Origin: a virus
Lineage: Duplodnaviria > Heunggongvirae > Uroviricota > Caudoviricetes
DNA: 64,000 nucleotides
Direction: 5' to 3' (one strand)
IMG/VR virus record: IMGVR_UViG_3300037504_000201
Span: 1 to 64,000 of that record
In this document: piece by piece, positions 5,822 through 61,145 of the stretch
Position numbering within the stretch: the first letter of the stretch is position 1
How the letters are laid out: the number at the start of each line of letters is the position of its first letter
The notes under the pieces: generated by a model
What the model saw: the letters and a program-made list of their open reading frames with translations, nothing else
What the model was told of the DNA's origin: nothing
Databases searched by the model: none
Position numbers and translations under genes: made by a program

Positions 5822-6149
5822 AATCAGCAACGAATGGGATGAGAATAGCGTGGCTGTCGAGGCGTTGATAATCTTCGCCAAGCTTCGCCGCGCCAAATGT
5901 TACCCCGATTGCCACAAAGTCGGCAAGCCCGAGATCGTCGCCGAGCGTCAGCACCTCGATGGAATGTCATACGAGGTCGTCATCCCCTACGAGGTGGCGC
6001 CGAACACCTACGGACCTGACCGGCTGGCCCGCTACCGGTTTGGCCCACGCTGTGATTACTGTCTTGGCACCGGCTTTAGCTCATCCGGCTCGACCGACGG
6101 CGTGACGTGCCGTGCGTGTCAGGGCTGGGGCGTAAAGCCGCCAGTGTAG
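5814..6149 (+). CDS. hypothetical protein with C-terminal CxxC-x-CxxC
   Basis: CDYC and CRAC motifs. Confidence 0.5.
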   Translation: MSRISNEWDENSVAVEALIIFAKLRRAKCYPDCHKVGKPEIVAERQHLDGMSYEVVIPYEVAPNTYGPDRLARYRFGPRCDYCLGTGFSSSGSTDGVTCRACQGWGVKPPV

Positions 6150-6158
6150 GAGGGAGAA

Positions 6159-6872
6159 ATGCCTAAACGTAAACGACCCACTTTGCAGCAACTCGAGGCC
6201 CATTCCGCGCCGATTATGAGCGCGATGGGCACAACGCTCACCGACACCGAGCGTGCAATTTACTGGCACGTGCGCAAGGCCGGCCCCAGCACGTCGCAAG
6301 ACCTGCTGGACGCCAGAAACGAGATCGGCGCGTGCGAAAGCGGTATTCGCAACGCACTGACTGACCTGGTCAAGCTAGGCCTGCTCACGCGTCGCCATGG
6401 AACATACCCTTACGTCCATGAGGCCGTGACGCACTTCCCGCTGGACGACGCGCAGAAGCTGTGCCAAGACGAGCGCGAGGTGGCGCGATGTCTGTCCGGC
6501 TGCGGAACCGACCGGTTCATTAGCCTGGCGCTGGATTTCTTCTGGCGCGCCAAGCCGGTATTAAGGATGGGGAAAGGATTGAGCGGTAGATACTTGGTAT
6601 ACGGCGTGAGCTACAAAGGCGGGTTCAAGGAACGGGTGTCCGTCTCGTTGGTTGAGCAGCACGAATACAAGCCAGACTACCATGTCCATATTAGCCCCGC
6701 CTGGTTTGAAAATATCGGTGCTGATGCACCGCTGATCAGCTTGCTCGAAGCCGACTTGGGCGCCTACCCGTGGGCTTATACCTACTGGGTGCGGCGCAAC
6801 GAGGGAAAGCTACCGCGCTACCTACTGCCCGGTCAAGAGGCGGCGATAATGGAGGAGCTAAACGATGCCTAA
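6159..6872 (+). CDS. winged-helix DNA-binding protein (putative regulator)
   Basis: RBS AGGAGGGAG. The N-terminal 90 aa are wHTH/MarR-like. Confidence 0.45.
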   Translation: MPKRKRPTLQQLEAHSAPIMSAMGTTLTDTERAIYWHVRKAGPSTSQDLLDARNEIGACESGIRNALTDLVKLGLLTRRHGTYPYVHEAVTHFPLDDAQKLCQDEREVARCLSGCGTDRFISLALDFFWRAKPVLRMGKGLSGRYLVYGVSYKGGFKERVSVSLVEQHEYKPDYHVHISPAWFENIGADAPLISLLEADLGAYPWAYTYWVRRNEGKLPRYLLPGQEAAIMEELNDA

Positions 6873-7167
6873 ACCGATTTTGTGGCACGCCTACGAAACT
6901 GACACGCGCACCGGCGCGCGCCGTCGCTTGACCGAGCGCCCAATGGCGTGGGCGTGGTGCGCGCGGCTGTTCGAGAACTTCAAGTCCTCCAACTCCAACA
7001 ACGGCGTCACCATCATCGACGTCGAGCCGGAGGGCGGGTGGCGCGTCATCGAACACGAGCCAATTATGGTAATTTTGCAAGCGTTCCGCGATGGACAGTT
7101 GGACATGCGCGGCGCGCTACAGGCGATAAAGCAGGTCGGGCAATGTGACCCGACGGATGAGCTGTAA
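6865..7167 (+). CDS. hypothetical protein
   Basis: RBS GGAGGAG. Overlaps the upstream stop. Confidence 0.55.
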   Translation: MPKPILWHAYETDTRTGARRRLTERPMAWAWCARLFENFKSSNSNNGVTIIDVEPEGGWRVIEHEPIMVILQAFRDGQLDMRGALQAIKQVGQCDPTDEL

Positions 7168-11369: not shown

Positions 11370-11770
11370 TGATAATCTCAATAGCCATCCACAGGGGCAC
11401 ACTCGCCGTCGTCACCTACGACGGCGCCGAGGTGACGTGCATCAAGACCTTGGCGATGAACCGCACGACGTGGCCCGACCTTTGGAACACGCTGTTCGGT
11501 TACGCCGCCGGCCGGGCACGCCAGAACGGCGGCAAGGTTGGCAAAGTCGTGCTGTACCAGAACGGCGGGGACATATCGGAGACCGAACGGATGTTCGGGT
11601 TGCTGACGGGCGTGGCGGGCGAGTTCAATTGCCCGCTTGAGCGGGCGCATTGTGACGACGAGGATGAGGCGCGCGCGTGGCGCATGTTGCCGGGCGGTGA
11701 GGATACCGCCGTGGCGCTGGCGCTGGGTGCGGCGATGAAGGTGATAAACAGAAAGGAAGATGAAAAATGA
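11369..11770 (+). CDS. RNase H-like fold protein, possible RuvC-like resolvase
   Basis: N-terminus MIISIAIHRGTLAVV and C-terminal ALALGAAMKV are RuvC-like, but the N-terminal Asp is not conserved. Confidence 0.25.
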   Translation: MIISIAIHRGTLAVVTYDGAEVTCIKTLAMNRTTWPDLWNTLFGYAAGRARQNGGKVGKVVLYQNGGDISETERMFGLLTGVAGEFNCPLERAHCDDEDEARAWRMLPGGEDTAVALALGAAMKVINRKEDEK

Positions 11771-12384
11771 AATACCCAAAAATTGAAACGTTGTGGAATC
11801 GCGGGGACGACTTTAAAGTCATGCCCGGAGATTTCAGAATGCCAGAGTTTGTGCTTGTCAAATCTTGGCTGATCACCGAGAAAATTGATGGGCGCAATCA
11901 TCGCGTGATCCTAAACGTAGACGGCACTGTCGAGCATCGCGGACGAACCGACCGCGCGCAATTTGCCGACTTTGAGCTTGAAGCGGCGCAGCGTATCATT
12001 GACGACGATTTGGTGCGCGCCGCCTTCGACCGAGGCTCACAAGCCGTTCTTTACGGGGAGCTGTACGGCCCTAAGATTCAAAAGGGAGGTGTGTATGGTG
12101 ATGAGATTCAGTTTAGACTGTTTGATGTTCGCGTTGGCGATTGGTGGCTAAATTGGAGAGACGTTGAGGATGTGGCGCAAAAGATCAACGTATCGACTGT
12201 GCCGCTGATTTACGAAGATGAATTTTTACCGACCTGCAAGGATGAGCTTGGGGACTATTTTACTGACGGCAGCTATGTCGGCGGCGACAGACCGGAGGGC
12301 ATTGTGGCGCGAACAGACCCTCTTTTATTCACTCGACGCGGAGAGCGTCTAATGTGGAAGCTAAAATTTAAAGATTTCAAATGA
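11767..12384 (+). CDS. ATP-dependent RNA/DNA ligase-like nucleotidyltransferase
   Basis: Motif I TEKIDGRN (KxDG). 205 aa, Rnl2-like size. Confidence 0.6.
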   Translation: MKYPKIETLWNRGDDFKVMPGDFRMPEFVLVKSWLITEKIDGRNHRVILNVDGTVEHRGRTDRAQFADFELEAAQRIIDDDLVRAAFDRGSQAVLYGELYGPKIQKGGVYGDEIQFRLFDVRVGDWWLNWRDVEDVAQKINVSTVPLIYEDEFLPTCKDELGDYFTDGSYVGGDRPEGIVARTDPLLFTRRGERLMWKLKFKDFK

Positions 12385-17244: not shown

Positions 17245-18117
17245 ATGTACAAGTTTCGTTTTGTTCTCGCATTGGTTGTTCTGTCGCTACTGATTAGCGG
17301 ATGTTACTTACCGGGTACCGTGGATAGCTCCGAGGTCGGTCTGAAGATTACAAGCGGTAAGGTCGAGGATGTCCTGGAGCCTGGGCGCTACACCGACGTG
17401 GGTTGGTATACGTCTCTCGCTACCGTGGATACGTCTGCGAAGACCACTGACTGGAAGGACCCGGACCTGGTGACTAGAGATAAACAGCCCATCGGCCTTA
17501 CTATCTCGGTGACCTACGCACGAAACCGTGACCACAAGTCTATTAAACAGATGTGGACCCAGTACAATACAGAGGCGCGAGACGATAAAGCGCTGGCTGC
17601 ACAGGTGCTTAAACGTGTCCCTGGCGCAGCTAAGGACCTTACTACCCGTTACAGCCTGGACGAGATGCTCGGGATTACGCCAGACGCCCCTGGTCGGGCT
17701 ATCGTGACCCAAGCGCTATTCGACGCCTTAGAGCCGGAGCTTGAGGAGATCGGCATCAGTTTGCTCAATGTCACCATCGGTAACATTGCCCCGAGTGAAC
17801 AGTATCTTAATCTCTTGGAGGAAAAGGCCAATGCGCAAGCATCTACAGAGGTAGCGCGGGAGATGACTAAACAGCTTGAGGAACAGCTCAAACAAGAGGA
17901 AGCTCAAACCCAAATCGAGTTGGAGAAGGCACGTCGTCAGAACGAGGTCAATTCTGAACTAGCAAAGACGTATGAGCAATCGCCTGAATACTTTGAGCTG
18001 GAGAAGCTACGCTTGATGCAGGGCGTGATCGGCGGTAAAGACAAGCTCATTTTTATTCCACCCGGTACCGACCTGTCGTTATTGTTCTCTGCTGATGGAT
18101 TAGTCCCGCTTCAATGA
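17245..18117 (+). CDS. SPFH/band-7 (HflK/prohibitin-like) domain lipoprotein
   Basis: Signal peptide with lipobox LLISGC. EVGLKITSGKVEDVLEPGRY and a C-terminal coiled coil typical of SPFH. GC content is clearly below the surrounding genome. Confidence 0.7.
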   Translation: MYKFRFVLALVVLSLLISGCYLPGTVDSSEVGLKITSGKVEDVLEPGRYTDVGWYTSLATVDTSAKTTDWKDPDLVTRDKQPIGLTISVTYARNRDHKSIKQMWTQYNTEARDDKALAAQVLKRVPGAAKDLTTRYSLDEMLGITPDAPGRAIVTQALFDALEPELEEIGISLLNVTIGNIAPSEQYLNLLEEKANAQASTEVAREMTKQLEEQLKQEEAQTQIELEKARRQNEVNSELAKTYEQSPEYFELEKLRLMQGVIGGKDKLIFIPPGTDLSLLFSADGLVPLQ

Positions 18118-18714: not shown

Positions 18715-19062
18715 ATGCCATATCACGTAACCTGGGACGACTTTTACGACGACCAGTTGCCAGACGAAGCGGAGCCAAGCGAGCGTGTGGCCTTTATCCA
18801 TTCCGGCGTCATTGTCTATGCAACATCGAACCGCTTTTATTACAAGGTGTTTAGCAAATCGCGGGGTTGGTACGCTATCGATATTCGGCAAGCTGCACAC
18901 TTGATGATTGCGCCAGAGTCGGTTGATGAGGTGGTGAATGGCGACCACCGACCATTGATTCAGATGCTGATTGACCAGGCCTTCGGCGCAACGGAGCCGG
19001 AGGACGTATTGATAAACCATATGGAAAGATTGAAAGGAGATAAACAAGAATGGCCGATTTAA
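18715..19062 (+). CDS. hypothetical protein
   Basis: RBS GGGAGGG. Confidence 0.5.
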   Translation: MPYHVTWDDFYDDQLPDEAEPSERVAFIHSGVIVYATSNRFYYKVFSKSRGWYAIDIRQAAHLMIAPESVDEVVNGDHRPLIQMLIDQAFGATEPEDVLINHMERLKGDKQEWPI

Positions 19063-19256
19063 CACTTTACGGTGCATGGATTATGGGCGATAACGAGTGG
19101 GGCACCACCGGCACCGGCGAGGTGTTCAACACACCCCACGTCGGCGTAGCCCGCGCGCAGGCGTGGCAATGGTGCAAATTTAGAAACACCGTCCCGGCCA
19201 AGTTTGGCGACGACGGCAAACCGATATTCTTAGGTGAACTCCCAGCGGACGAATAA
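19050..19256 (+). CDS. hypothetical protein
   Basis: RBS GGAGATAAACAAG. Confidence 0.5.
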   Translation: MADLTLYGAWIMGDNEWGTTGTGEVFNTPHVGVARAQAWQWCKFRNTVPAKFGDDGKPIFLGELPADE

Positions 19257-19416
19257 TCCGCTATGGAATAGGGGGCGTATAGGCACGACAAGAAAGGGGG
19301 TACTCATCAAAGCACTTAAAACTAGACCGGGCACGCTACATCTGAGGGGTCAGATAGCTGACCTGGTTGGCTTGAGGTAGTGGGCGGTGGTCGTGCCCCC
19401 GTCACCGCCCACGATT

Positions 19417-19506
19417 TACACGGTTCCGTGTTACTTAGCCGACTTAGTTTTAGCTCTTAAAACATATATTATATATTTTAAGAGAATCAATTATGTCAAA
19501 TTGATT
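19417..19506. repeat. AT-rich palindromic element, copy 4 (hairpin-extension type)
   Basis: TACACGGTTCCGTGTTA, then CTTAGCCGACTTAGTTTTAGCTC, spacer and arm GAATCAATTATGTCAAATTGATT. The TTGACA-18-TATATAAT it carries is on the minus strand. Confidence 0.75.
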
Positions 19507-19526
19507 TTAGATGAATAGGAGGTAAA

Positions 19527-19691
19527 ATGATGCAAGTAGTATGGATGGTGTTAGGTGTGGCGCTATGCTTCACCGGCGGCCTTGGCGTCGGGCTTGTCCT
19601 GGGCCGCGCCAACGGGTACAAGGAGGCGAGTCGTGTCAGGCGGCGCTATTACGGCCTGGGCGAGGAAGGGGCAGAACGTGACTTTACGTGA
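19527..19691 (+). CDS. small membrane protein (54 aa)
   Basis: RBS AGGAGGTAAA. One TM helix (VLGVALCFTGGLGVGLVLG). Not in the ORF track because it is under 60 aa. Confidence 0.45.
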   Translation: MMQVVWMVLGVALCFTGGLGVGLVLGRANGYKEASRVRRRYYGLGEEGAERDFT

Positions 19692-19908
19692 TTATCAAGT
19701 GGTCGAGGGCTACACGGCCCACATGCTGCGTAGTCGCGTCGTCAAGGCGATGCGTGACGGCTGGCGCCCCATTGGCGGTGTGGCGATGATGTACGACGGC
19801 AAGGTGTCGCGCTACGCCCAGGCGATGGTAAAGGACGAGGAAGATCAGTCGGTTTTGGACCGTCCCATTATCGACTATGCAGAACAGTTTAACGAAAGGG
19901 GTAAGTAG
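19678..19908 (+). CDS. hypothetical protein
   Basis: GTG start after GAAGGGG. Overlaps the upstream ORF's end. Confidence 0.4.
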   Translation: MTLRDYQVVEGYTAHMLRSRVVKAMRDGWRPIGGVAMMYDGKVSRYAQAMVKDEEDQSVLDRPIIDYAEQFNERGK

Positions 19909-20216
19909 TGATGACCAATAAAGAGCTACAAATAAATGTCAAGCGCGCGCTTGAACTGGCGCTTGAGCTTGAGCAAGCCGCGGCCGACGTGGCACAAGCG
20001 CTCGACGCATTCAATGAGGCAAGTTGCGAGCTTGGCGCCGCAAATCAGCGCCGACACGAACTGGCAATGGAGCTTCAACAGGTCGCGGACTTGAAGGGGC
20101 ATGTGCCCGGCGCGTCGGTGTGTATCCAGACCGGTGACGACATCGTGGTCACCATCACGCGCGTGCAAGGCGAACCGGTCAAGGCGTCGCGCCGCAAGCT
20201 ATACCGCGCCACTTGA
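19908..20216 (+). CDS. hypothetical protein
   Basis: ATGA overlap. Last gene of the + block. Confidence 0.5.
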   Translation: MMTNKELQINVKRALELALELEQAAADVAQALDAFNEASCELGAANQRRHELAMELQQVADLKGHVPGASVCIQTGDDIVVTITRVQGEPVKASRRKLYRAT

Positions 20217-20240
20217 CACGGGCGCGCGCCTGCGATACAA
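20212..20240 (+). promoter_or_regulatory. sigma70-type promoter
   Basis: TTGACA-17-TATACAAT-like (TACAAT). The -35 overlaps the stop codon of 19908-20216. Confidence 0.5.
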
Positions 20241-20246
20241 TAGAAG

Positions 20247-20320
20247 CATCTCCTCCTTGAGAGGCACCAATCGCTTGCCCCATCGGGCCACCGCACCCCC
20301 GATGGGGCAGCCTCTTTTTT
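20247..20320 (+). ncRNA. candidate small RNA (about 70 nt) with anti-SD motif
   Basis: Sits between the promoter at 20212 and an intrinsic terminator. Contains UCUCCUCCUU, complementary to the AGGAGG RBSs used throughout. Confidence 0.3.
20270..20320 (+). terminator. rho-independent terminator
   Basis: Stem TTGCCCCATCGGG / CCCGATGGGGCAG followed by CTCTTTTTTAT. It sits at the convergence of the + and - blocks. Confidence 0.75.
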
Positions 20321-30579: not shown

Positions 30580-33500
30580 TTAAGCCTTCTCGAACACCGA
30601 TGCCAGGTCATTCATGATAATCGCGGCGGCAGCGTCTGCCACCTTGCCGCCAATCTGGTCTCCCAAGCCGCTCACATTCACATCCACGCGCCCGCCGACG
30701 TTCACATTTTGCGGCGCCATCGTCGGGGTGCCGGGGAGCGCCATCTGGGCCGGGCTGGCGGCGCCGCCAAGGGCGCCGGATGCGTATACGTACTCACGCA
30801 CGCCCGGCTCGACGACGAAGGCGTGTGGGCCGGTCACCACGCCAGAGAATCCGTGTTGCACCGCGTCGGTGGGCATTTGGTATCCGCCAGGGCGTTGGTA
30901 GCCCGTCGCGCCGACCGGCGTCTGTCGCGCTGACATCCGAGCGTTGAACTGCGCAATCATCGCCTCATACTGAGCAATGTACGCTTGCAAGTCGGCAAGC
31001 TCTTGGTTGTATTGCTGGCGCTTGATCTCGATTTGATTGTTAGCTGCCTCTTGCTCGCGCCGTACCTCTTCTTGCAAGCTTTGATTCAGCGCCGCCAGCC
31101 GTTGCTGGTACGCCTCTTCTGCCGCGCGTTGTTGCTCGGCGTAATTGCGGCTTTCGGTGCGCACCTGCTCGCTGTAGTTCTGCTCCTCGTCCATCACGGC
31201 TTCGTCGCGTGCTTCACGCGCCTCTATAATGGCGAGGGCATTGCGCTCAATCGCTGCCTTGCGCACCGTGATGTCATAGTCGCGCTGGATGTCGCGCAGG
31301 CGTTGGCGATGTGCGCGCTCGATGTCCTCCATTCGCATGCGGTGGGCGCGTTCGTTCTTGGCGCGCTGGGATTGATAATCGCTGCTAAGCTGGTTGCGCC
31401 GCGCGAGGGCGTCTTGGCGGATCTGTGTGATGTTGTCTTGTGTATCGCGCTCGATCTGCTCGACCTCGGCGCCCATCTGACGTTGAATGTCGGCCTCTTG
31501 CTCTTGCGCCGCCGTCAATTCCTCATAGGCCGCGCCCTTGTCCTTCATCACGCGGATAGTCTCAAGCGTTGACTCGATGCTCTCACGCTCGGCGTTGCTC
31601 AGCTCAATGATGCCTTCCTTGGCTTGTTCTGTGTATTCGACCAGCTCCTGCTCGGTGATAATCCCGCGCGCATAGGCCTCGCTCAGCATCTCCATCGTGT
31701 CGCGCGCCTGGACCTGCTCCCACGACGTCTCGCCCAGCGCAACGGCAAGAGCGTTCTGCTTCGCCGCTAGCACCTCGGGGTCCATATCCACGTCGCCCAG
31801 GCCCCCGCGCGCAAGCTGCACTGCCTCTTCGCCCAGGGCAGATCGCTCTTGCAACGCGATAAGCTCTTCTTCTTCGAGCTTGAGACTCGCCGCCGCAAGC
31901 TGAGCCTTGGCGAACGCCTTCTCGACACCGCTAAGATTCTCTACCTTCCACTCAAGCCATTCGACCAGCGCCGCCGTGCTATCGCCCATCTCATCGACGA
32001 TTTGCGTGTACTTCCACGCGGCCTCACTGGCTTGCCCTATCGCCTCGGCATGCTTGGGCAGTTCTTCATTTGCCTCTTGCACGGCCCGGATGTACTCCGG
32101 GTAGCTCTGGCTTGATAATTGCAATAGCGTCTGAATCTCTTCTTCTTGTGCGTTGACAAGCGATTCTTCGTCCATGTGATTGCGCGCGACCCAGTATCTG
32201 TAATCTTCAAGCGGTCCCTCTGAATCGTATAGCGCCGCGCTGACATCGCGCCGCTTTTGCGCATAGTCCTGCGCGATAGCGATGGCTGATTGTTCTTCGC
32301 CGCCTACCTCGCGGATGGACTCAAGGTATTCACTCCATTGATCCTTGGTTTCCTCTGTCCCATCGCGCACTTCGGCACTAACTTTTTCGACTTGCTTGAA
32401 CATCACAACGAGGCCGCCAATAGCCGCAGCAAGGGCAGCGAACGGTGCCGCCGCGGACGCAGCACCGACTGCCAACTCTTTCAGCCCGCCCAGCATCGCG
32501 CCGGTCCCGCCGACGTTCTTGAGCGCGCTCAGATATTGCAGGTTACCCTTTAGCCCGGCGCTGATCTTTGTGGCGACGGTGTTCTGCCCCATCGCACCGG
32601 TCTGCGCGATAAGCGCCTTGTTCTCCGTCGCCAGCGCCGCCGCGTGGGCCGCTGCTGCCGTCGCCGCCGCCTGCTTGGCGAGGATGAACGGCGTAAACAG
32701 CGTACTCGCCATCTGCAAAAAGTTGGTGAATTTAGAGAAGAACGGGCCAATACCGGACTGGTCGATCAGGTTGTTGACGACGTTGGTCACTCGCTGAACG
32801 GACACACCGAATTGGTCATAGGAGTCGGTGGCCTTGGTGACCCCGTCCGGGAATTCCTCAAGCTGCTTGTCCGCCTGCTGCAAGAGCGCGTTCCATATCG
32901 CCATAGATCGCTCTTGGCTTGATAATTCCCCCGTCGTCTTGCCAAGCCGCTCTGCCGTCATCTCCAGCGCGTCGTTGAGCTTGATGGTGATGCCCAACTC
33001 GTCAAGGAATTCAACCTCGGCCTTGACGGCGCCGTAGGACATACGGGTGAAGGCGGCTTCTGTGGTCAGCCCGAACTGCTTGGATTTTAGCCGGGCAAAC
33101 TCCATCATCTGCGCCATGTCCTCGACGCTGGTCTCAAAGTTAGCGCCGAGCACCATGTTAGACACTTGCATGATGTTGTTGGCCGATACGGTGCCGTTCG
33201 CCGCGCGTTGCATCGCGTCAACCAGCTCGTCACCGGACAGCCCGGCGCGCTCGGCGAGGTGGTCGAACGACTCTGACATGTCGCGCAGTTGCGCGCCTTG
33301 CCGGCCCATCTGCGCGAATTGCTGCCCGACTTCGTTCCACGTGTCCAGCATTTCGTCGCCAGCCGCGCGGAATTGACGCCCCATATTCTCAAAGTGACCC
33401 AGCATCCCGTCAAGGTCTTGCTCGATGAGCACAACCTTGTCATGGGCCTCTTGGGCCATCTCGGCAAAGGCGCGCTGAATGTCCTCTGACGCGCCGGACG

Positions 33501-33633
33501 CCTGGTCACCTACTGAACCATACTTGGATTCCAGGTTATCCAACATGGCGACGAGGCGCGAGGCTTTGCCCTCGACGTCCTGAATGTCCATCTGGACCAG
33601 GATTTTGATAATGTCCTCGCGCGTCATCGCCAT
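30580..33633 (-). CDS. tape measure protein
   Basis: 1017 aa, extensively coiled-coil, with Gly/Ala-rich hydrophobic segments. Follows the chaperone genes. Confidence 0.8.
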   Translation of the reverse strand: MAMTREDIIKILVQMDIQDVEGKASRLVAMLDNLESKYGSVGDQASGASEDIQRAFAEMAQEAHDKVVLIEQDLDGMLGHFENMGRQFRAAGDEMLDTWNEVGQQFAQMGRQGAQLRDMSESFDHLAERAGLSGDELVDAMQRAANGTVSANNIMQVSNMVLGANFETSVEDMAQMMEFARLKSKQFGLTTEAAFTRMSYGAVKAEVEFLDELGITIKLNDALEMTAERLGKTTGELSSQERSMAIWNALLQQADKQLEEFPDGVTKATDSYDQFGVSVQRVTNVVNNLIDQSGIGPFFSKFTNFLQMASTLFTPFILAKQAAATAAAAHAAALATENKALIAQTGAMGQNTVATKISAGLKGNLQYLSALKNVGGTGAMLGGLKELAVGAASAAAPFAALAAAIGGLVVMFKQVEKVSAEVRDGTEETKDQWSEYLESIREVGGEEQSAIAIAQDYAQKRRDVSAALYDSEGPLEDYRYWVARNHMDEESLVNAQEEEIQTLLQLSSQSYPEYIRAVQEANEELPKHAEAIGQASEAAWKYTQIVDEMGDSTAALVEWLEWKVENLSGVEKAFAKAQLAAASLKLEEEELIALQERSALGEEAVQLARGGLGDVDMDPEVLAAKQNALAVALGETSWEQVQARDTMEMLSEAYARGIITEQELVEYTEQAKEGIIELSNAERESIESTLETIRVMKDKGAAYEELTAAQEQEADIQRQMGAEVEQIERDTQDNITQIRQDALARRNQLSSDYQSQRAKNERAHRMRMEDIERAHRQRLRDIQRDYDITVRKAAIERNALAIIEAREARDEAVMDEEQNYSEQVRTESRNYAEQQRAAEEAYQQRLAALNQSLQEEVRREQEAANNQIEIKRQQYNQELADLQAYIAQYEAMIAQFNARMSARQTPVGATGYQRPGGYQMPTDAVQHGFSGVVTGPHAFVVEPGVREYVYASGALGGAASPAQMALPGTPTMAPQNVNVGGRVDVNVSGLGDQIGGKVADAAAAIIMNDLASVFEKA

Positions 33634-43280: not shown

Positions 43281-45161
43281 TTACAAAGTTGATAACTCGT
43301 ACTCGTACAGCTCCAAGATCGCCTTGGCTTCGCTGATCTCATCCCGCCCCTTCAGGCCAGTCTCTAGCCTCTCTTCCAGAGTGGGTTCGACGTAGCGCAA
43401 GCCGGCAGCGTCGTAAGCTGCTTTTACGTAATCAAGGGGCCGGTCCCGAAGCGCGTACTGAATCGGGATCGGCGTAAACGTATCGTCGGCAACCGGGAAT
43501 GATAATATCTCCCGGTCCGGCGTTCGTTTTACCAGGTGGGGCACGGAGCCGGGGCTGTAGTAGAGTGCCTTTTGCGCCAGCAAACCATCTATCATATCCC
43601 AATAATCACTAGACACATCAATCCAGTCTTGCACCCACAAGCCAACCTCGTCTTGCCAGGCGTCGTCACGGTGCCCCAGGGTAGCAACGCCTAGCTTGGG
43701 GTCCTTGCCGTGATGGAACAATGCCGGCGCCTTGCTGTAGGCGTCAAGGTAAAACTCGGTCTTGGGGGTAAAATAATCGCCGTGCAAGTCTCTGTGGTCT
43801 GGGTCGCCCCATAGTGCCATGTAGCCGCCGATGACGGCGCCCTTGCGGTCGCCTCCAGGCAGCGCCACGGCTTTAAGGTAGGGGAATGAAAATGCCTTTT
43901 GCATCGTCATCGCCGAACCGGCTTGTATCTGTGGCTGGCCCTCGCTGTAGCGCGCCCAGGCCAGCACCGCGTCCAGCTTGGCGATAATCTCTTCGAGCGA
44001 TGATTGGGCCATTTTGCGCAAGGACACAAGGTCTTCCACCTTGCTTTGAGCGATGCGCTTGCCGGCCTTGGTGGCGCCGGTGTCGATGGGGACGATCTCG
44101 TTCGCCCACATCAGAGCCAGTTGCATCACGACCGGCTCTGTCGGCAAGTCTGGCGCGTCCGGCATCGGCGCGCCGCTTGGCACATAAGCCAGCGTCAGAT
44201 GGGGCGTGTAACCGTGCTCCGAGACGTTCAGTGTGCTGAACGCCCGCCGCAGACCCTCAATGTCGGGGCTGTCAGCGTTGACGTAGACAGGGTCGCCCGC
44301 CTCGTCGGTGCCACGGAACCGACCAATGCCGTTTAGCATCACCGGCACCGCCGTCATTAGCCCACGCGCCGTGTCGCGCACGGCGGACAACACGCGCGCC
44401 CGGTCCAGCTCGTCCACCTCGCCCAGGTAGGCGATGGTGACGTGTAGCGTCTCTGACGGTAACCCGCCGGGGATCACCAGCATCTCGGCCACTGTCGGGT
44501 CGGGGATCAACACCACCGCCGCGCCGTCCGAGCCGGGTGTCTCTTTCTCCGGTTCATATTGCTTGGTGACGGGGATAGGTTCGCCGAATGAAAATCCGTC
44601 TTGCCCCTCTGCGTAGGGATAACGCAGCAACTGCCCGTCCTCCATCCGACGCGCAATGACGGCGTCGTTGAGGATATCGTGAATCCAAATGTCGACGGGC
44701 GACGGGACGAGAATCCCTTCATCGTCGTAGCGACGGGGCCTAAACTCAGCCTCCCAGGCCGACCTCACCTTCTCTTCGTACTCGGACAGACTGTATGATT
44801 TGGCCTCGTCTTCGTCCATCGCTTGCGGTTCACCGAATACCGGCTCGCCTTCGTCGTCCTCTGACCACGGGTAGCTCATTAGCCCGTCGTCGTCCTTGGC
44901 GATCACAGCATCGTCGGTCACCTCAAGCACAGACCCGCCGTGCTCCTTCTCCCACGCGGCGCGGACGTCGGACTTGGAGCAGGCTTTGGCCTCGGCGCGA
45001 GGGGACGATTGAATCTTGTCTTCTAGTTTCTCAATCTCTTCCAGCTTCTTCTCATACGACGCCTTGAGCTTGTCCGCATCTTCCGGCGGCACGTCTTGCA
45101 TTGTGTGGAATAGAATGTAAGCGTCGATTACTAGCTGGTCCAGCTTTTCTTGATCGTTCAT
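43281..45161 (-). CDS. prohead protease (S78/U35, C-terminal) fused to a 2H phosphoesterase domain (LigT/Acb1-like fold)
   Basis: Two H-x-T motifs, LHVTIAYLG and PHLTLAYVP, about 75 aa apart. C-terminal IGGYMALWGDPDHRDLHGDYF...LFHHG matches the prohead protease. N-terminal coiled coil and two internal repeats. Confidence 0.5.
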   Translation of the reverse strand: MNDQEKLDQLVIDAYILFHTMQDVPPEDADKLKASYEKKLEEIEKLEDKIQSSPRAEAKACSKSDVRAAWEKEHGGSVLEVTDDAVIAKDDDGLMSYPWSEDDEGEPVFGEPQAMDEDEAKSYSLSEYEEKVRSAWEAEFRPRRYDDEGILVPSPVDIWIHDILNDAVIARRMEDGQLLRYPYAEGQDGFSFGEPIPVTKQYEPEKETPGSDGAAVVLIPDPTVAEMLVIPGGLPSETLHVTIAYLGEVDELDRARVLSAVRDTARGLMTAVPVMLNGIGRFRGTDEAGDPVYVNADSPDIEGLRRAFSTLNVSEHGYTPHLTLAYVPSGAPMPDAPDLPTEPVVMQLALMWANEIVPIDTGATKAGKRIAQSKVEDLVSLRKMAQSSLEEIIAKLDAVLAWARYSEGQPQIQAGSAMTMQKAFSFPYLKAVALPGGDRKGAVIGGYMALWGDPDHRDLHGDYFTPKTEFYLDAYSKAPALFHHGKDPKLGVATLGHRDDAWQDEVGLWVQDWIDVSSDYWDMIDGLLAQKALYYSPGSVPHLVKRTPDREILSFPVADDTFTPIPIQYALRDRPLDYVKAAYDAAGLRYVEPTLEERLETGLKGRDEISEAKAILELYEYELSTL

Positions 45162-46135
45162 AGTCCTAATTCCTCCGCCGCCTTTGCCATCCCGCGCATT
45201 TGAATGTCCTCCATGTCCTCATGCTTCATGCTCAAATCGCGCAACGTGTATTGGAACATCGCGCGGCGACGAATAGCATCTGCTTTTCTTCGACTTCGGC
45301 TGCTATAGCTGTAGCCGCTGATTACCTCGTCCAAATCGGCAATCTTGGACTCTATTCTGTCAACGTTCTGACGTAGTTTTTTTTGGGTGCTCTTGATCCG
45401 CGTGGTCCTCACCGCCTGTTTGACTTGCTTGATCTGGCTTGCATTGAGCTTGGTGCCGTCAGCGACGTGAAAATATTGACTGGCGATGTCGCGCGCCACA
45501 TCCGCCGCCTCGGGTGCAACAACCCAGCGTTTCTTACTTGGATTCCACTGGCGCATGCTGTACGCGATGTTGTTTTTTAAATCATCAACAAAGTCTCGAT
45601 TGTACGGCGTCTCAAAAGTTGTGCCTCCGCCCTTGTTTTTACCGATCACGGCCACGTCGCGCTCGGGATTCTTGGCGATTTGCTGGCGCAAGTCAGCGGT
45701 CGCGCCGGTGCGCAGTGACATAGCCGAAGTCCTTGGCGCGCTACCGCCGCGCTTCCCTTTGCGCCCGGCGTGCCCCCAGTTGCCGCTACCTGGGCCGCCC
45801 TTGGCCTCTTCCCGCTTGATAATCTTCTCACTGTCGGGGTCATAGCGATATGTATCGCCGTCCAGCATCTCGGCGATGCGCCGCCCGATGACGCGCCAGT
45901 CAGATTCCGAATAGTTGCCGGCCTCACGTTGCCCATCGTGGTTAAAGTACTGCATCGCCGCCAGCGCCCGGTCCCCGTCGCACGGGTACTTCCAGTTGAC
46001 GGGGTCGGCAAATTTACTCTCCGGCACGTCTTCATACTCTGCGGGTTTGGTGAGATGCCCGCCTTCGACGGGCGATATCCCGTATTTTTTAGCGCGCTTG
46101 GCTTGCGCTTCTTTTAGCTTCTCACGATCTGCCAT
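45158..46135 (-). CDS. head-module protein carrying Gly-rich motif GGPGSGNWGHAGRKGKRGGS
   Basis: RBS ACGGAGG. The motif is shared with the portal's C-terminal region. Confidence 0.5.
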   Translation of the reverse strand: MADREKLKEAQAKRAKKYGISPVEGGHLTKPAEYEDVPESKFADPVNWKYPCDGDRALAAMQYFNHDGQREAGNYSESDWRVIGRRIAEMLDGDTYRYDPDSEKIIKREEAKGGPGSGNWGHAGRKGKRGGSAPRTSAMSLRTGATADLRQQIAKNPERDVAVIGKNKGGGTTFETPYNRDFVDDLKNNIAYSMRQWNPSKKRWVVAPEAADVARDIASQYFHVADGTKLNASQIKQVKQAVRTTRIKSTQKKLRQNVDRIESKIADLDEVISGYSYSSRSRRKADAIRRRAMFQYTLRDLSMKHEDMEDIQMRGMAKAAEELGL

Positions 46136-49770: not shown

Positions 49771-49952
49771 TACTCTTCGCCTTCCTCCGCCTCGACCACG
49801 TAATACCACGGCGTCTGCTTGGCAATTTCGTGCGGCGTGTCGCTGGGGACGATGACGGAGGCGATAACGCCCTCTTCTAGCTCTTTACCTTGAACCTCGT
49901 AAAGCTTGCGGTCGCCGTGTTTGTCCGGGTCATAGTCGATGTATCTGGGCAT
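49770..49952 (-). CDS. small acidic protein
   Basis: TAATG coupling to the portal stop, with RBS GGAGG. Confidence 0.4.
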   Translation of the reverse strand: MPRYIDYDPDKHGDRKLYEVQGKELEEGVIASVIVPSDTPHEIAKQTPWYYVVEAEEGEE

Positions 49953-52396
49953 TAGTCACTGCCTCCAAATATTTCATCTAGGGAATCGACTTCTAAATAT
50001 TCGGCAAGAGCTTGTCGCTGTTCATTCGAACCATAATGATATACCCTAAAGGTATCGGCCTTAAATTCGAGATCTTTGGTTAGTGAGTACTCACGAAGGC
50101 CATACCTAGCAAGGTCGCCCTTCGTCACTCTATCCACAAACCCATACCTATAAGCATCCTTCATGTCCTTAAAACCATTAACCAATAAATCGTTCGCCCT
50201 TTGACCACGCTTACTCTCCAAGAACGCAGAGCGCATGGTTACATGGTGCCCAAGCTCGTGAGAGAAGATATACCTTGAAGACGATATAAAATCAGGATTT
50301 ATATGTATTGATTGCTCTTGCGGATCGTACACTCCTGCAGCATCATAATCGCCTACGTGGGAACGCCAAGGATTATCTGGCGAAAGTTGCGCGCGGATCT
50401 TTGTTGGCTCCGTCGTAATCCGCTTCAGCCCTTCCAAGTGTCGCGGCTGAATCTCATCTCGCACCATCATATCAACAACGACTTTGCGCGTCTTTTCATC
50501 AAGGCCCTCTACCAACTTGCGCCCAGGCCCAACCTCAAAGTATCGCGGATTGACACGTCCGCTTCCACGCATTGAACCCGGAGCACTCCCGCCGCGTTTC
50601 CCAGGGCGCCCAGCATGCCCCCAGTTGCCACTACCTGGGCCGCCTTTCACGTTCTCATCCCACGTCGGCGCGTTCATCAACTGCGCCCACTCGTCACTCA
50701 CCCGCGCAGCGCCCGCCACGGCCCGCTCGGCGTCGGTCTGCGTGATGGTCAACGTATCGTTGGCGAATAACGTGTCTCGGTCGGGCACAGGCATAAACTC
50801 GACGACCTCCTCCGGCTCCGACTCATTGTAGCGCGCCAAGAGCAGCGCCTCGGCGGTGGCGTCCTTGACCTCTGTGATAGGCAGATCGACCGGCGTCGCC
50901 GCAATCTCACGCAGGCCGGCAAACACCTCAAGCACGCCTTGGTCGCTCACGCCATCGGGTAGCGCAGTCAGCGCCGCTTCGGTCAGTGATTTTAGCCAGG
51001 CGGGGATGTCGTGGCACACGAACGGCGCCGACGACGGGTGCCGGCCAGACTGAGCGAAGCGCAACGCCTTGCGCTCCCACTTGCCCAGCTCGTCAAGCGC
51101 CTTGTTCTCTTCTTCTGCGGGCGGCTCTTCTTGCGTCTGTTCCTCGCCTTGCTGCCCCATCGATGCCAGCTCCGGTATCAATGGGATAAAGCGGGTGGGC
51201 AACGTGTCGCAGTACTCTGCCACCGGGCCGGCCTCGATAGGATCCAGGCCCTGCTTGGCCCGCGCCTCGTTGACCGTCATGTCCGGCGCGTATGTCGTAT
51301 AATCTTGACGGTCCTCATCACGTCGGGCGGGGCGAAAGTCCTCGTACTGACAAATGAATTGCTCGCCGTAGGTGGGCCGAATGAACTGCGTGGTGATGTC
51401 CCCGGCTAGAAGCTGCGCAATTGGGTAAACGTGCCACTCGGTCACCATGTCAAGGGACGCATACATCGAGGCGTAGGTGGTGTTCTGCGCCCCCAGCGCC
51501 TCCGACCAGCCCAGCACCTCCATAAACTCGCGGCGGTTGGAATCGCTCAACTGGACGATAGCCAGGTCGTCCAGGTTCATCTCCATCGCCTTGACGTCCA
51601 TATCGCCCGCGCGCATCACCAGCGCCGCCCGGTCCACCACCCGCAGCTCTTTGATAATCTCGTCGCGGATAGCAAAAAACTGCGAGCGCGTGACCGGCTT
51701 TTTGATGTTAAAGATGGTGGTGGGGGAGGCGTTCCTTGGCCCGAAAAAGTTCTCACGGAATCTCCGCTGGCCTAACTCAGTCTTGATGGTGCTCTCAAGC
51801 GCGCTTACCCCGCTCATCCCGTCCAATGGGTCGAGGATGTTGGGCATGCGACACCAAATGACTTGCGTGTGAGGAATCAGATAGGGCCGCCCGTCGCGCC
51901 CAGAGAACTCGTAGCCCAACACCGGCGTCTTGGTGTCGGGGCCTGGGATAGGCTGCACCGACATCGGCGGCAAGGGCCACAATGACTCCGGTTCAAGATT
52001 ATCATCCAGCCCTACAAAGATGAACGCGCTACCGCGAATCGGCAGACATAGCCCAATGAACCAGCGGAAGAACACGCCCGACATGAATGAGTTGGGGTCG
52101 TGCAAGAGAAGCTCGAACGGGTGATTCTCGACCGGCGTCGGCTTGTCCTCGGGCTTGGCACGCTCATAGATGCCGGGGATATAGCTGGAGAGAATCTTGG
52201 CGATGCCGTTGGCTGCTGTGTAGACGGGCGGGAGCTTGAGCGCCTTGCGCTGCAAGCTCTCGTGACTTGCGCCGGGCGCGGCACGTGATATGCCGCCGCC
52301 CATCGAGATAGGCAGATCGGGCACGGCGGGGTAAGGCTCACGTTCCCCAGGCCGTTCAATGCTCAGCTTTCCGACCCCCGGAATTCTGAATCTCAT
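49952..52396 (-). CDS. portal protein with C-terminal extension containing Gly-rich motif and HExxH zincin-like domain
   Basis: N-terminal 480 aa is portal-like. Then GGPGSGNWGHAGRPGKRGGS. Then a 230-aa domain with IFSHELGHHV. Confidence 0.65.
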   Translation of the reverse strand: MRFRIPGVGKLSIERPGEREPYPAVPDLPISMGGGISRAAPGASHESLQRKALKLPPVYTAANGIAKILSSYIPGIYERAKPEDKPTPVENHPFELLLHDPNSFMSGVFFRWFIGLCLPIRGSAFIFVGLDDNLEPESLWPLPPMSVQPIPGPDTKTPVLGYEFSGRDGRPYLIPHTQVIWCRMPNILDPLDGMSGVSALESTIKTELGQRRFRENFFGPRNASPTTIFNIKKPVTRSQFFAIRDEIIKELRVVDRAALVMRAGDMDVKAMEMNLDDLAIVQLSDSNRREFMEVLGWSEALGAQNTTYASMYASLDMVTEWHVYPIAQLLAGDITTQFIRPTYGEQFICQYEDFRPARRDEDRQDYTTYAPDMTVNEARAKQGLDPIEAGPVAEYCDTLPTRFIPLIPELASMGQQGEEQTQEEPPAEEENKALDELGKWERKALRFAQSGRHPSSAPFVCHDIPAWLKSLTEAALTALPDGVSDQGVLEVFAGLREIAATPVDLPITEVKDATAEALLLARYNESEPEEVVEFMPVPDRDTLFANDTLTITQTDAERAVAGAARVSDEWAQLMNAPTWDENVKGGPGSGNWGHAGRPGKRGGSAPGSMRGSGRVNPRYFEVGPGRKLVEGLDEKTRKVVVDMMVRDEIQPRHLEGLKRITTEPTKIRAQLSPDNPWRSHVGDYDAAGVYDPQEQSIHINPDFISSSRYIFSHELGHHVTMRSAFLESKRGQRANDLLVNGFKDMKDAYRYGFVDRVTKGDLARYGLREYSLTKDLEFKADTFRVYHYGSNEQRQALAEYLEVDSLDEIFGGSD

Positions 52397-59056: not shown

Positions 59057-60664
59057 TTATACCCAACCCATAAGGACGGCGTTGTCGCCTTCGAGGGCGA
59101 AGGATAGCGCCAGGGCGTCGGCTTTATCTGGGGATCGTCCGAGGGAATCGCGCATCTTGTCTTTAGGCGTGATGCGTCGCACGCCACCTTTGTTCTCGTA
59201 CTGGATCGCCGTCAGCTCTTGCGCCAGTTGGTCGTCTGGCGGCAGCATCGCCGTAGGGTCGTCGTGAAGCCAGCGGCGCACCTGGTCGAATAGATAGGCG
59301 CGCAGGTCATAGTAGGCGGTGACGCCATCCTCGTTGGGTGGTGACTTCCAGCTTACCTTGACGCCCAGCACCTGCGTCTCGGCGAACGGCACGCGCTCGG
59401 AGCGGGCGAGGCCGGCAATCTCTTGTATCCTCTCAATCTCTTCGCGCATCCTTGGCGCCACACCGGCACCAACTCCCACGGCGTCCACGGCCACGGCGGC
59501 GGGGTGCACGTTGGCCAGGCGCATCGTCGCCTCTTTCGCCGTCTCGTTGGGGTCGATGCCGTTCCACAGCTCAAGCGGCGCCACCCACCCACCGTAGCGC
59601 TTGCACAGACAGTTAAAGTCGGCGCCAAACTCGGCGATGTCCAGCCCGACCAGCGGCGCGATGCCAGGCGGTTGGTCGCCCACCAGCTCTTGCCTCAGCT
59701 TCCATCGCCCCATCGCGCGCGTTACGTCGCTTTCGGGGATGAGCTGATTGAGCGACTGGCCGGGGAAGCGGGCCAGAACGATGTAGGAGAGTTGCGGGTC
59801 TTCGACTTTGCGCCACCCGGCGCCGACCTGGTCTGCTAAAAAGTCGGGCACCTTAAAATATTCAAGCTCGGCCTCGTCGAACTTTTCTCCGTCAACAACC
59901 GGGCGCGACCACTTTTCTATGCGCCGGATCGTTCGTCGTCTCGTCACGGCCCCGCCGGGGATCACTGTCTCGCCGGTGATGACGTTAGGATGGGAGAAGG
60001 CGTCGAGGGTGACGACGTGGGCGCCTTGGGTGATGAGCTTGTAGGCCGGTGAATTCTTGGACCTCGGGTTGAACATCACAAGCAGCCGGGCGAACCCGCC
60101 GCTCATACACGACTCAATGCCGCGATACACCTCTTCGGGCACCGCATCCCCTTCGTCAATGATAAAGAGAAGGAAGGGAGCGTGCTTGCCGGCAAACTTG
60201 GCTTCACGTTCTGCGCTGGATCCGCTCGTCGGGATCGCCACACCGTCAAACCACCAGTTAGGCCCGGCAGCGATGTGCATGGTGTGCACGTCGCAATCAT
60301 TGAACAGCTCCGGATGGTCCATAACGCGCTGGTCCACCTCGCCCCACAGCAGGCGCTGGAGGTTGTCAAGTGGCGGGGCAGCAGCGCTGACGATCTTGGA
60401 GTTGGTGAGGCAGCGGAAGAACCACACGCCCACGTCGGCGGCGATAAACGTCTTGCCGACGGCATTAGCCGACTTGACGACGGTGACGCGGTGGTCGACG
60501 ACGGACTGCAGTACCTCGGCTTGCCCGTCGGTGACGTGGTGGCCCAGTACGCGCCGGGAGAAGCCGATAGGGTCGAAGGCCCAGGCGGACCATTCGTTGG
60601 GGGAGAGGCGTTTTAGCCCGGCGACGGCCTCGCGCTGAAGAAGGTAGCGGTCATTCCTCGCCAT
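59057..60664 (-). CDS. terminase large subunit
   Basis: Walker A KSANAVGKT. About 535 aa with a nuclease-like C-terminus. Overlaps the small subunit gene. Confidence 0.75.
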   Translation of the reverse strand: MARNDRYLLQREAVAGLKRLSPNEWSAWAFDPIGFSRRVLGHHVTDGQAEVLQSVVDHRVTVVKSANAVGKTFIAADVGVWFFRCLTNSKIVSAAAPPLDNLQRLLWGEVDQRVMDHPELFNDCDVHTMHIAAGPNWWFDGVAIPTSGSSAEREAKFAGKHAPFLLFIIDEGDAVPEEVYRGIESCMSGGFARLLVMFNPRSKNSPAYKLITQGAHVVTLDAFSHPNVITGETVIPGGAVTRRRTIRRIEKWSRPVVDGEKFDEAELEYFKVPDFLADQVGAGWRKVEDPQLSYIVLARFPGQSLNQLIPESDVTRAMGRWKLRQELVGDQPPGIAPLVGLDIAEFGADFNCLCKRYGGWVAPLELWNGIDPNETAKEATMRLANVHPAAVAVDAVGVGAGVAPRMREEIERIQEIAGLARSERVPFAETQVLGVKVSWKSPPNEDGVTAYYDLRAYLFDQVRRWLHDDPTAMLPPDDQLAQELTAIQYENKGGVRRITPKDKMRDSLGRSPDKADALALSFALEGDNAVLMGWV

Positions 60665-61145
60665 CAATTCGCTGCTCGACCAGCGCGTCGATTAGCGCGT
60701 CCAGCTTCTCCGCGCGCTCGGTGTCGGTTAGGCCGGCGTGGACGGATTCAATGGGGCCGCCGTCCTTGCCGGTCAGCTCGGTGCGCGTCGGCGCGTCCAG
60801 TCCCATGAGGTCAGCCCGGCGCTTCATCAACTTGAGCACCCGGTCAATCGCGCTGTAATCGCCTTGCGCCGCCCGCGTCCAGATGCCAAGCAGCATCCGG
60901 TCGATGCGCTCAAGTTCTAGCGTGCGAACGGCGCCCGCATCGTCTGCGATTTGGTCACGCAACTTTTCAAGCTCGCGCTTGACGTCTTTGTGCGCGTAGC
61001 GTTCACCCCACCCACCGGGTAGATTGTCAATGCCAAACTCTCGCACCGCAGCGGCGGCGATGTCGCGATATGTGGCACCGGCACGGCGCATTTTTAGCAC
61101 GTATTCACGTCGTTCTGCCGTGTCTAACAAATCGCTTGTACCCAT
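60651..61145 (-). CDS. terminase small subunit (putative)
   Basis: N-terminal HTH (RRAGATYRDIAAAA). Position immediately upstream of the large subunit. Confidence 0.55.
   Translation of the reverse strand: MGTSDLLDTAERREYVLKMRRAGATYRDIAAAAVREFGIDNLPGGWGERYAHKDVKRELEKLRDQIADDAGAVRTLELERIDRMLLGIWTRAAQGDYSAIDRVLKLMKRRADLMGLDAPTRTELTGKDGGPIESVHAGLTDTERAEKLDALIDALVEQRIDGEE

Follow-up and report, generated by a model that had tools for sequence, protein, structure and literature searches.

In this work, we analysed a 626-amino-acid (aa) protein encoded by a tailed phage (Caudoviricetes) in IMG/VR virus record IMGVR_UViG_3300037504_000201, positions 1 to 64,000; this whole stretch of 64,000 nucleotides (nt) is referred to as the window. 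We favour, with somewhat more belief than doubt, the reading that this protein is a capsid-maturation protease with an N-terminal cargo region, and that the predicted competent LigT/ThpR-like 2H phosphodiesterase held in this region is packaged and delivered. The protein joins, in one open reading frame, an enzymatic domain of the conflict type to a head-morphogenesis domain, as in the polyvalent and MuF-portal cargo proteins. An earlier inspection of the letters alone (the sequence-only reading) had proposed a candidate capsid-packaged enzyme, and this is still the best-supported reading, since the same 2H clade is fused to portal, protease, and protease-capsid proteins and peptides of one clade member were recovered from virions of phage GMA2.

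Two enzymatic domains in one head-module protein

At the sequence level, the 2H match is far above chance: aa 234-336 matched the Pfam models PF13563 (40.1 bits, cutoff 27, E=4.9e-10) and PF02834 (30.4 bits, cutoff 23.3). The two H-x-T motifs named by the sequence-only reading are present, although the spacing between their histidines (H240 and H321) is 81 residues rather than about 75. In 13 aligned head-fused 2H domains, H240, T242, H321, R305, and the GxGxF motif (G278, G280, F282) were invariant, and T323 was nearly so. A degenerate, purely structural 2H domain was considered and rejected because the catalytic residues are conserved across the fusions.

Structure prediction was run on both enzymatic domains. 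The AlphaFold2 model of the 2H domain, covering aa 205-365, was confident (pLDDT 88.7, pTM 0.84) and displayed the bilobed alpha+beta 2H fold. Foldseek retrieved 32 matches from the PDB at E<=1e-3, and those listed were all 2H-superfamily entries. E. coli LigT (5ldm) was the best (E=6e-6, TM 0.66), followed by the Deinococcus CPDase; Acb1 (7T26) ranked 11th, with rotavirus VP3, Usb1 (E ~1e-3), and AKAP18 below it. The phosphodiesterase of Burkholderia phage BCSR5 (PDB 9Q2Y) is also structurally similar to the 2H domain. The domain shares with E. coli LigT/ThpR the two H-x-T motifs, GxGxF, and the conserved arginine, but their identity is ~17%, and LigT is a stand-alone cellular enzyme of ~180 aa, whereas here the domain lies in a late head-morphogenesis protein.

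A single-sequence word-indexed search with the 2H domain gave one protein, and a profile of the head-fused 2H domains was required. This profile mostly retrieved ThpR/LigT proteins named 'RNA 2',3'-cyclic phosphodiesterase'. The score against the ThpR equivalog TIGR02258 was 24 bits versus a cutoff of 65.7; therefore, the domain is a 2H superfamily member and not a ThpR orthologue.

The label given by the sequence-only reading, LigT/Acb1-like, stands in its first half, with LigT/ThpR closer by both structure and sequence, but Acb1 is not specifically supported. The 626-aa protein had no match to the Acb1 model PF23474 at E<=0.1, and relatives scored below its cutoff of 27 (GMA2 Orf10 and Hanem gp25 with 19.6 bits each, and Edmundo gp18 with 12.3 bits). 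In BFVD, the nearest structures were actinophage head-module proteins, and Acb1 entries ranked 24 or lower; the neighbours included GMA6 Orf12, GMA2 Orf10, and a 1050-aa 'capsid morphogenesis protein' of Microbacterium phage OneinaGillian. Acb1 identity was rejected on the family model together with the PDB and BFVD rankings, and 'Acb1-like' is a superfamily-level statement at most. Acb1 (T4 57B family; E=8e-5, target-normalised TM 0.67) is likewise a phage 2H phosphodiesterase and plausibly does the same job, the destruction of nucleotide immune signals. However, it ranks below LigT in the PDB and below ~20 actinophage head-module proteins in BFVD, and it is a small protein that stands alone, with no described fusion to any head protein. 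Judged by its conserved residues and predicted fold, the middle domain is a bona fide LigT-like 2H enzyme, apparently active.

The C-terminal domain presents the prohead protease/assemblin fold with a conserved His484/Ser536 pair, in agreement with the HK97-type prohead protease that had been read from the motif IGGYMALWGDPDHRDLHGDYF...LFHHG (aa 444-485). An exhaustive search with aa 420-626 recovered a family of 2,546 representative clusters. Among the 102 best members, 33 matched Peptidase_S78 (PF04586, best E=5e-7) and 21 had the protease fused to Phage_capsid (PF05065); in 43 of 150 members, over 200 aa follow a protease located at the N-terminus. S536 was invariant in both the 102- and the 37-sequence alignments, while H484, about 50 residues away, was invariant in the smaller one and nearly invariant in the larger one. 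When the family profile was aligned to HK97 gp4 with hhalign (E=6.3e-5, probability 64%), H484 paired with H65, and a more permissive run paired S536 (YYSPGS) with S114 (GMSVGF); we take H65 and S114 to be the catalytic residues of gp4. Compared to HK97 gp4, T4 gp21, and herpesvirus assemblin, the 626-aa protein is longer at its N-terminus by ~425 residues, which comprise the charged segment, both repeats, the 2H domain, and the linker, and it lacks a PF04586 match. We consider the identities of the 2H and protease domains practically certain.

Other enzymes are also found on this protease family. Among the same 102 members, an ATP-dependent DNA ligase (PF01068) is fused in two (best E=2.6e-9), ChaB is present on one, and one has a weak LigB match. 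These fusions suggest a general role for the protease N-terminus as a platform for cargo. The same protease family was detected in 183 Salinibacter ruber phage records, with 31% identity to aa 444-582; in Salinibacter phage 15_1 (3276-5816), the protease forms the C-terminal part of an 846-aa 'hypothetical protein', which has 600 aa on its N-terminal side and lacks a 2H domain.

Regarding the remaining parts of the 626-aa protein, aa 1-60, taken for a coiled coil in the sequence-only reading, had no family match in Pfam-type library searches. The two internal repeats of the sequence-only reading were recovered: the local alignment of aa 66-112 to aa 132-195 scored 67, against 26.4 +/- 5.5 (maximum 49) in 500 shuffles. 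Among the collected homologue proteins (P-numbers hereafter), this repeat domain precedes the protease in P0001, P0011, P0015, P0016, P0021, P0023, P0031, and others, and it is also present in P0004. A phmmer search with aa 341-440 located the linker before the protease domain of P0011, P0012, P0014, P0015, P0026, P0044, and P0048. Acidic/leucine-rich tails are recurrent at the C-termini of homologues. The tail of HK97 gp4 has a docking role, and by this precedent the conserved C-terminal helix (aa 606-625) is a likely capsid-docking element. A separately translated protease starting at internal Met413 or Met415 was rejected: no Shine-Dalgarno precedes either codon, so there is no sign of such a product.

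2H domains on other head proteins and in virions

The closest relatives lacking the 2H domain, P0011-P0014, have a protease 57-62% identical to that of the 626-aa protein and consist only of repeat, linker, and protease. Thus, the 2H domain is an accessory insertion. The 92% identical P0010 is a fragment beginning inside the 2H domain, and P0015, P0037, and P0043, from the same protease family, have the order 2H, repeat, protease. A capsid domain is added in the triple fusions P0152 and P0153 (2H-protease-capsid), the second of which is above the Pfam cutoffs for both 2H and S78 (PF04586 21.5 bits, cutoff 21).

The same 2H clade is also joined to other head proteins. It was found with the XkdF-type protease PF14550 in P0007, P0008, P0162, P0163, and Arthrobacter phage Edmundo gp18; with a DUF2213-type protease/scaffold protein in P0004, encoded between the portal and capsid genes; within a Mu-type protease-capsid polyprotein in P0006; and with a portal and a MuF-like domain in P0005. 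Long head-protein families with an embedded 2H domain are present in PHROGs as well (phrog_18402 'head maturation protease' and phrog_2659). Altogether, the partners of this one 2H clade comprise portal/MuF proteins, protease-capsid polyproteins, and proteases from at least three families, and the nearest 2H relatives are mostly protease fusions. The 2H domain is encoded by a stand-alone gene in two Gordonia phages, GMA6 (Orf12) and Hanem (gp25), where it is flanked on one side by a portal or portal-MuF gene and on the other by a gene for an ADP-ribosyltransferase toxin.

The best-defined counterpart is gp18 of Laroyevirus (Edmundo gp18, 5830-6942), a 370-aa protein with a 2H domain (PF13563 41 bits) and a prohead protease, encoded in the head module between the portal/MuF and capsid genes. 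Its 2H domain is 32-35% identical to that of the 626-aa protein, and in Edmundo both the 2H and the PF14550 matches are above cutoff. Unlike the 626-aa protein, gp18 has an XkdF/S78_2 protease (PF14550) after the 2H domain, has no repeats, and is separated from the capsid gene by several non-structural genes. The labels given to this gene in Laroyevirus genomes include 'capsid maturation protease', 'RNA ligase', 'aldolase class I', and 'hypothetical protein', and this inconsistency between sister genomes hides the 2H-protease fusion.

At the protein level, the evidence for virion association comes from GMA2. Its Orf10 (883 aa, KR063281 7981-10632) is encoded directly after Orf9, both are annotated as 'putative structural protein', and its 2H domain spans aa 724-874 (profile E=8e-17), with motifs H756-L-T and H836-I-T. 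Dyson et al. (2015, PMC4524720, S5 Table) detected 18 Orf10 peptides in purified GMA2 virions, and the 2H domain was unrecognised by these authors. We mapped the 18 peptides to aa 142-846; one of them, SEVGDYDAYTPHITAVTGQQAR (aa 825-846), covers the second motif, H836-I-T. Virion association is therefore shown for one member of the 2H clade, GMA2 Orf10, rather than for the 626-aa protein itself. In the middle of Orf10 (~aa 575-680), an R...S...ExE pattern looks like an ADP-ribosyltransferase, as judged by eye.

Iyer et al. (2017, PMC5512222; 2022, PMC9503650) described 2H domains fused to MuF or portal proteins and proposed that they are packaged and injected, either to act as RNases or to break down the 2'-5' or cyclic nucleotide signals of host defence. 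For capsid-processing serine peptidases, the fusion described in these studies is with Nudix and not with 2H. The MuF-protease fusion of cluster EG, to which OneinaGillian belongs, was described with no mention of 2H (PMC7302621). In the literature, we found no paper describing the 2H-prohead protease fusion as such. The sequence-only reading knew of no fusion of this type, which overstated its novelty: Edmundo gp18 and phrog_18402 exist, and the packaging idea is in the two studies of Iyer et al. The 2H-protease fusion is real, but it is not an undescribed type; it is a variant of the already hypothesised head-fused 2H proteins. The packaging-and-injection idea is already published for these proteins, and 2H-protease fusions are already deposited unremarked. 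Two points are new here: the GMA2 virion peptide over a 2H H-x-T motif, and a possible trigger-antidote link of the fusion to the cyclic oligonucleotide-based antiphage signalling system (CBASS).

Gene, late operon, and coordinates

As the sequence-only reading stated, the gene is just upstream of the major capsid gene, from which it is separated by 15 nt. It thus occupies the canonical protease slot, within a minus-strand block that is a tailed-phage late operon (terminase, portal, head genes, and tape measure; Table 1). The gene order is portal, several genes, the 325-aa gene, the 626-aa gene, and the capsid gene. The ATG of the 626-aa gene overlaps the stop of the 325-aa gene (ATGA) and is preceded by a GGAGGA Shine-Dalgarno 9 nt upstream.

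The major capsid protein carries an N-terminal extension of ~185 aa, and the head module contains no separate scaffold gene; this is an HK97-style arrangement. The capsid protein is the presumed substrate and assembly partner of the 626-aa protease, and its best identity to any deposited phage is 32%. For the 626-aa protein, an exact-sequence look-up in public assemblies gave no match. The DUF6582-like domain of the 325-aa gene (aa 3-94), which leaves a C-terminal part of 230 aa, matched P0024, P0045, and P0139 by phmmer (E=1e-22 to 3e-25), where it is fused to the same protease family as that of the 626-aa protein. Because of these fusions, the 325-aa product is probably a head-interior component. 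The portal protein, at the start of the head module, is unusually long: the Pfam model spans aa 57-382 and the PHROG profile stops near aa 559, leaving a C-terminal extension of ~250 aa. Related phages place MuF or effector domains in such extensions.

The plus-strand block, from 1 to ~19 kb, contains replication and nucleotide-metabolism genes. Among ~19000-20300, both the coding strand and the GC skew flip (plus/positive up to ~19 kb, minus/negative from ~20 kb), and this segment looks like a divergent early/late module junction. The early region also encodes a 290-aa SPFH/Band 7 (stomatin/prohibitin-like) protein at 17245-18117 (+) (PF01145 E=2.8e-24). The RNA ligase and the 3'-phosphatase of this block together look like an RNA-repair set, and no kinase domain was identified beside the pair.

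Table 1. Features discussed in the text and their positions in the window. Positions of the 626-aa gene include the stop codon; residue numbers without a gene name refer to its product.
Feature	Positions	Strand	Basis or remarks
Prohead protease + 2H gene, 626 aa	43281..45161	-	open reading frame list; ATG start
N-terminal K/E-rich charged segment, aa 1-60	44982..45161	-	sequence only
Repeat copy 1, aa 66-112, small domain typical of this protease family	44826..44966	-	internal alignment
Repeat copy 2, aa 132-195	44577..44768	-	internal alignment; phmmer with aa 1-205 against collected homologues
2H phosphoesterase domain, LigT/ThpR-like, aa 213-358	44088..44525	-	Pfam, AlphaFold2, Foldseek
First catalytic motif, H240-V-T242 (HVTIAY)	44436..44444	-	conserved in 13 head-fused 2H domains
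Second catalytic motif, H321-L-T323 (HLTLAY)	44193..44201	-	conserved in 13 head-fused 2H domains
Linker, aa 366-410	43932..44066	-	phmmer with aa 341-440
Prohead serine protease domain, aa 432-585, divergent HK97 gp4/Peptidase_S78 relative	43407..43868	-	
Predicted catalytic His484	43710..43712	-	37-sequence alignment; aligns with HK97 gp4 H65
Predicted catalytic Ser536 (YYSPGS)	43554..43556	-	102- and 37-sequence alignments; aligns with HK97 gp4 S114
C-terminal amphipathic helix, aa 606-625	43287..43346	-	predicted helix 182-201 of the model
Major capsid protein, 475 aa	41838..43265	-	PF05065 E=6.8e-43 over aa 188-466; phrog_10
325-aa gene, translationally coupled, upstream of the 626-aa gene	45158..46135	-	N-terminal DUF6582-like domain; weak PF20223 match
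Portal protein, 814 aa, start of the head module	49952..52396	-	PF04860 E=9.2e-29; phrog_2662, phrog_12
Large terminase	59057..60667	-	late operon
Tape measure gene	30580..33633	-	late operon
Rnl2-type RNA ligase	11767-12384	+	PF09414 E=5.3e-19; phrog_548
HAD/polynucleotide-kinase-type 3'-phosphatase, 289 aa	16055-16924	+	PF08645, PF13242

Proposed packaging and delivery, and possible substrates

In the mechanism that we propose, the 626-aa protein would be made late and would co-assemble into the procapsid via its protease domain and C-terminal helix, which would place the 2H domain within the shell. At maturation, the protease would cleave the N-terminal extension of the capsid protein and its own linkers. 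The freed compact 2H domain (~17 kDa) would remain confined to the head until its ejection, along with the DNA, into the next host cell, where it would hydrolyse a nucleotide-type phosphodiester ahead of any phage gene expression. Its target would most likely be a cyclic-oligonucleotide or 2'-5'-linked immune signal, with a 2',3'-cyclic phosphate RNA end as the alternative.

The steps of this mechanism differ in how probable they are. Procapsid incorporation is probable and is strongly suggested because the same clade forms protease-capsid and portal fusions. For the retention and delivery of the 2H domain, which we infer, the chances are evenly balanced, and the assignment of an immune signal as its substrate is tentative. 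The idea of a packaged enzyme is plausible and by now has indirect support; its delivery and its substrate are putative.

T4 internal proteins and Alt are a known case of packaged cargo: they are loaded in the prohead core, trimmed by gp21, kept in the head, and injected against host defences. They differ from the 626-aa protein in that they are separate proteins with a short N-terminal capsid-targeting sequence, whereas here cargo and protease form a single covalent chain. The MuF/portal 2H polyvalent proteins and GMA2 Orf10 are closer, with the same 2H clade on head-resident proteins. However, MuF and portal proteins stay in the capsid, while a maturation protease normally self-destructs and leaves.

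This last difference is one of several points that weigh against the packaged and delivered enzyme. After maturation, the HK97 protease undergoes self-digestion and the resulting fragments exit the shell, so the retention of the 2H domain is an assumption. GMA2 Orf10, the clade member found in virions, has no protease fusion and has only the 2H clade in common with the 626-aa protein. On the protease side, the domain had no direct match in sequence libraries (PF04586 gave none at E<=10), and its S78 membership rests on its relatives and its fold. As for the substrate, family models and profile searches give no Acb1 Pfam match and place ThpR/LigT RNA 2',3'-cyclic phosphodiesterases as the nearest cellular relatives, and an Rnl2-type RNA ligase and a PNK-type 3'-phosphatase (PNK, polynucleotide kinase) in the same genome fit RNA repair.

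Two rival explanations have to be weighed, and we regard neither as likely. In the first one, which is compatible with the cargo model, the 2H domain is an antidote acting in the producing cell: it is fused to a protease that triggers CBASS, so that the silencer matches the trigger in time, place, and stoichiometry, and its packaging is incidental. Prohead proteases cut the activation loops of CD-NTases and switch on CBASS late in infection; T4 gp21 is sufficient for this activation, and T4 needs Acb1 (a 2H enzyme) together with Acb2 to mask it (Hobbs & Kranzusch 2026, PMC12991175). Moreover, CBASS escape mutations map to the prohead protease (Richmond-Buccola et al., bioRxiv 10.1101/2023.05.21.541620). 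The joining of the 2H clade to at least three protease families, and the predominance of protease fusions among its nearest relatives, also favour an antidote. However, the same clade is found on portal/MuF proteins without a protease (P0005 and GMA2 Orf10) and as stand-alone genes beside ADP-ribosyltransferase toxins (GMA6 Orf12 and Hanem gp25), and there is no Acb1-model match. The portal/MuF fusions and the stand-alone genes thus argue for a logic of head cargo in general, and not one specific to proteases.

A combination of both ideas can be envisaged, to which we give a low probability: selection would have welded a 2H cyclic-oligonucleotide phosphodiesterase to the protease because CBASS-type sensors detect the activity of this very protease, making trigger and silencer one polypeptide; the capsid would then carry the silencer into the next host to pre-empt signalling there. 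Such cis-linkage of trigger and antidote would explain the independent fusion of one 2H clade to at least three prohead-protease families and, if true, would be a new design principle of counter-defence.

The second rival explanation, also improbable in our view, is RNA repair. Host anticodon nucleases or other metal-independent RNases would leave broken tRNA or mRNA ends, which the 2H domain would heal as a 2',3'-cyclic phosphodiesterase in concert with two further phage enzymes, the RNA ligase and the polynucleotide 3'-phosphatase. Its delivery ahead of time might let the repair begin without delay. The nearest cellular relatives (ThpR/LigT), the best PDB match (E. coli LigT), and the presence of both partner genes in the window agree with such a role. 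However, these genes lie ~30 kb away, on the other strand and in the early/replication module, whereas the 2H gene belongs to the late head operon. In the T4 paradigm, end-healing is already covered by the PNK-type phosphatase. Besides, polyvalent and head-fused 2H versions were reportedly never seen associated with RNA ligases (Iyer et al. 2017, PMC5512222).

Finally, an injected offensive RNase that damages host RNAs early, either a Usb1/Mpn1-like 3'-5' exoribonuclease or an RNase leaving cyclic phosphate ends, is very improbable: Iyer et al. (2017, PMC5512222) listed it among the options for 2H domains on MuF and portal proteins, Usb1 is among the Foldseek matches, and the Gordonia phage 2H genes adjoin ADP-ribosyltransferase toxins, but the Usb1 matches are much weaker than those of LigT and there is no sequence-family match to the Usb1/HVSL model.

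If the 2H domain of the 626-aa protein is packaged and active, this phage and many others with the same 2H clade would enter the cell pre-armed with an enzyme able to erase nucleotide alarms or repair cut RNA. Such action before phage transcription would give a timing advantage beyond that of any ordinary anti-defence gene. With prohead proteases now shown to trigger CBASS directly (PMC12991175), the link to the protease gains new relevance, and inconsistent public annotations conceal a widespread class of head-carried enzymes.

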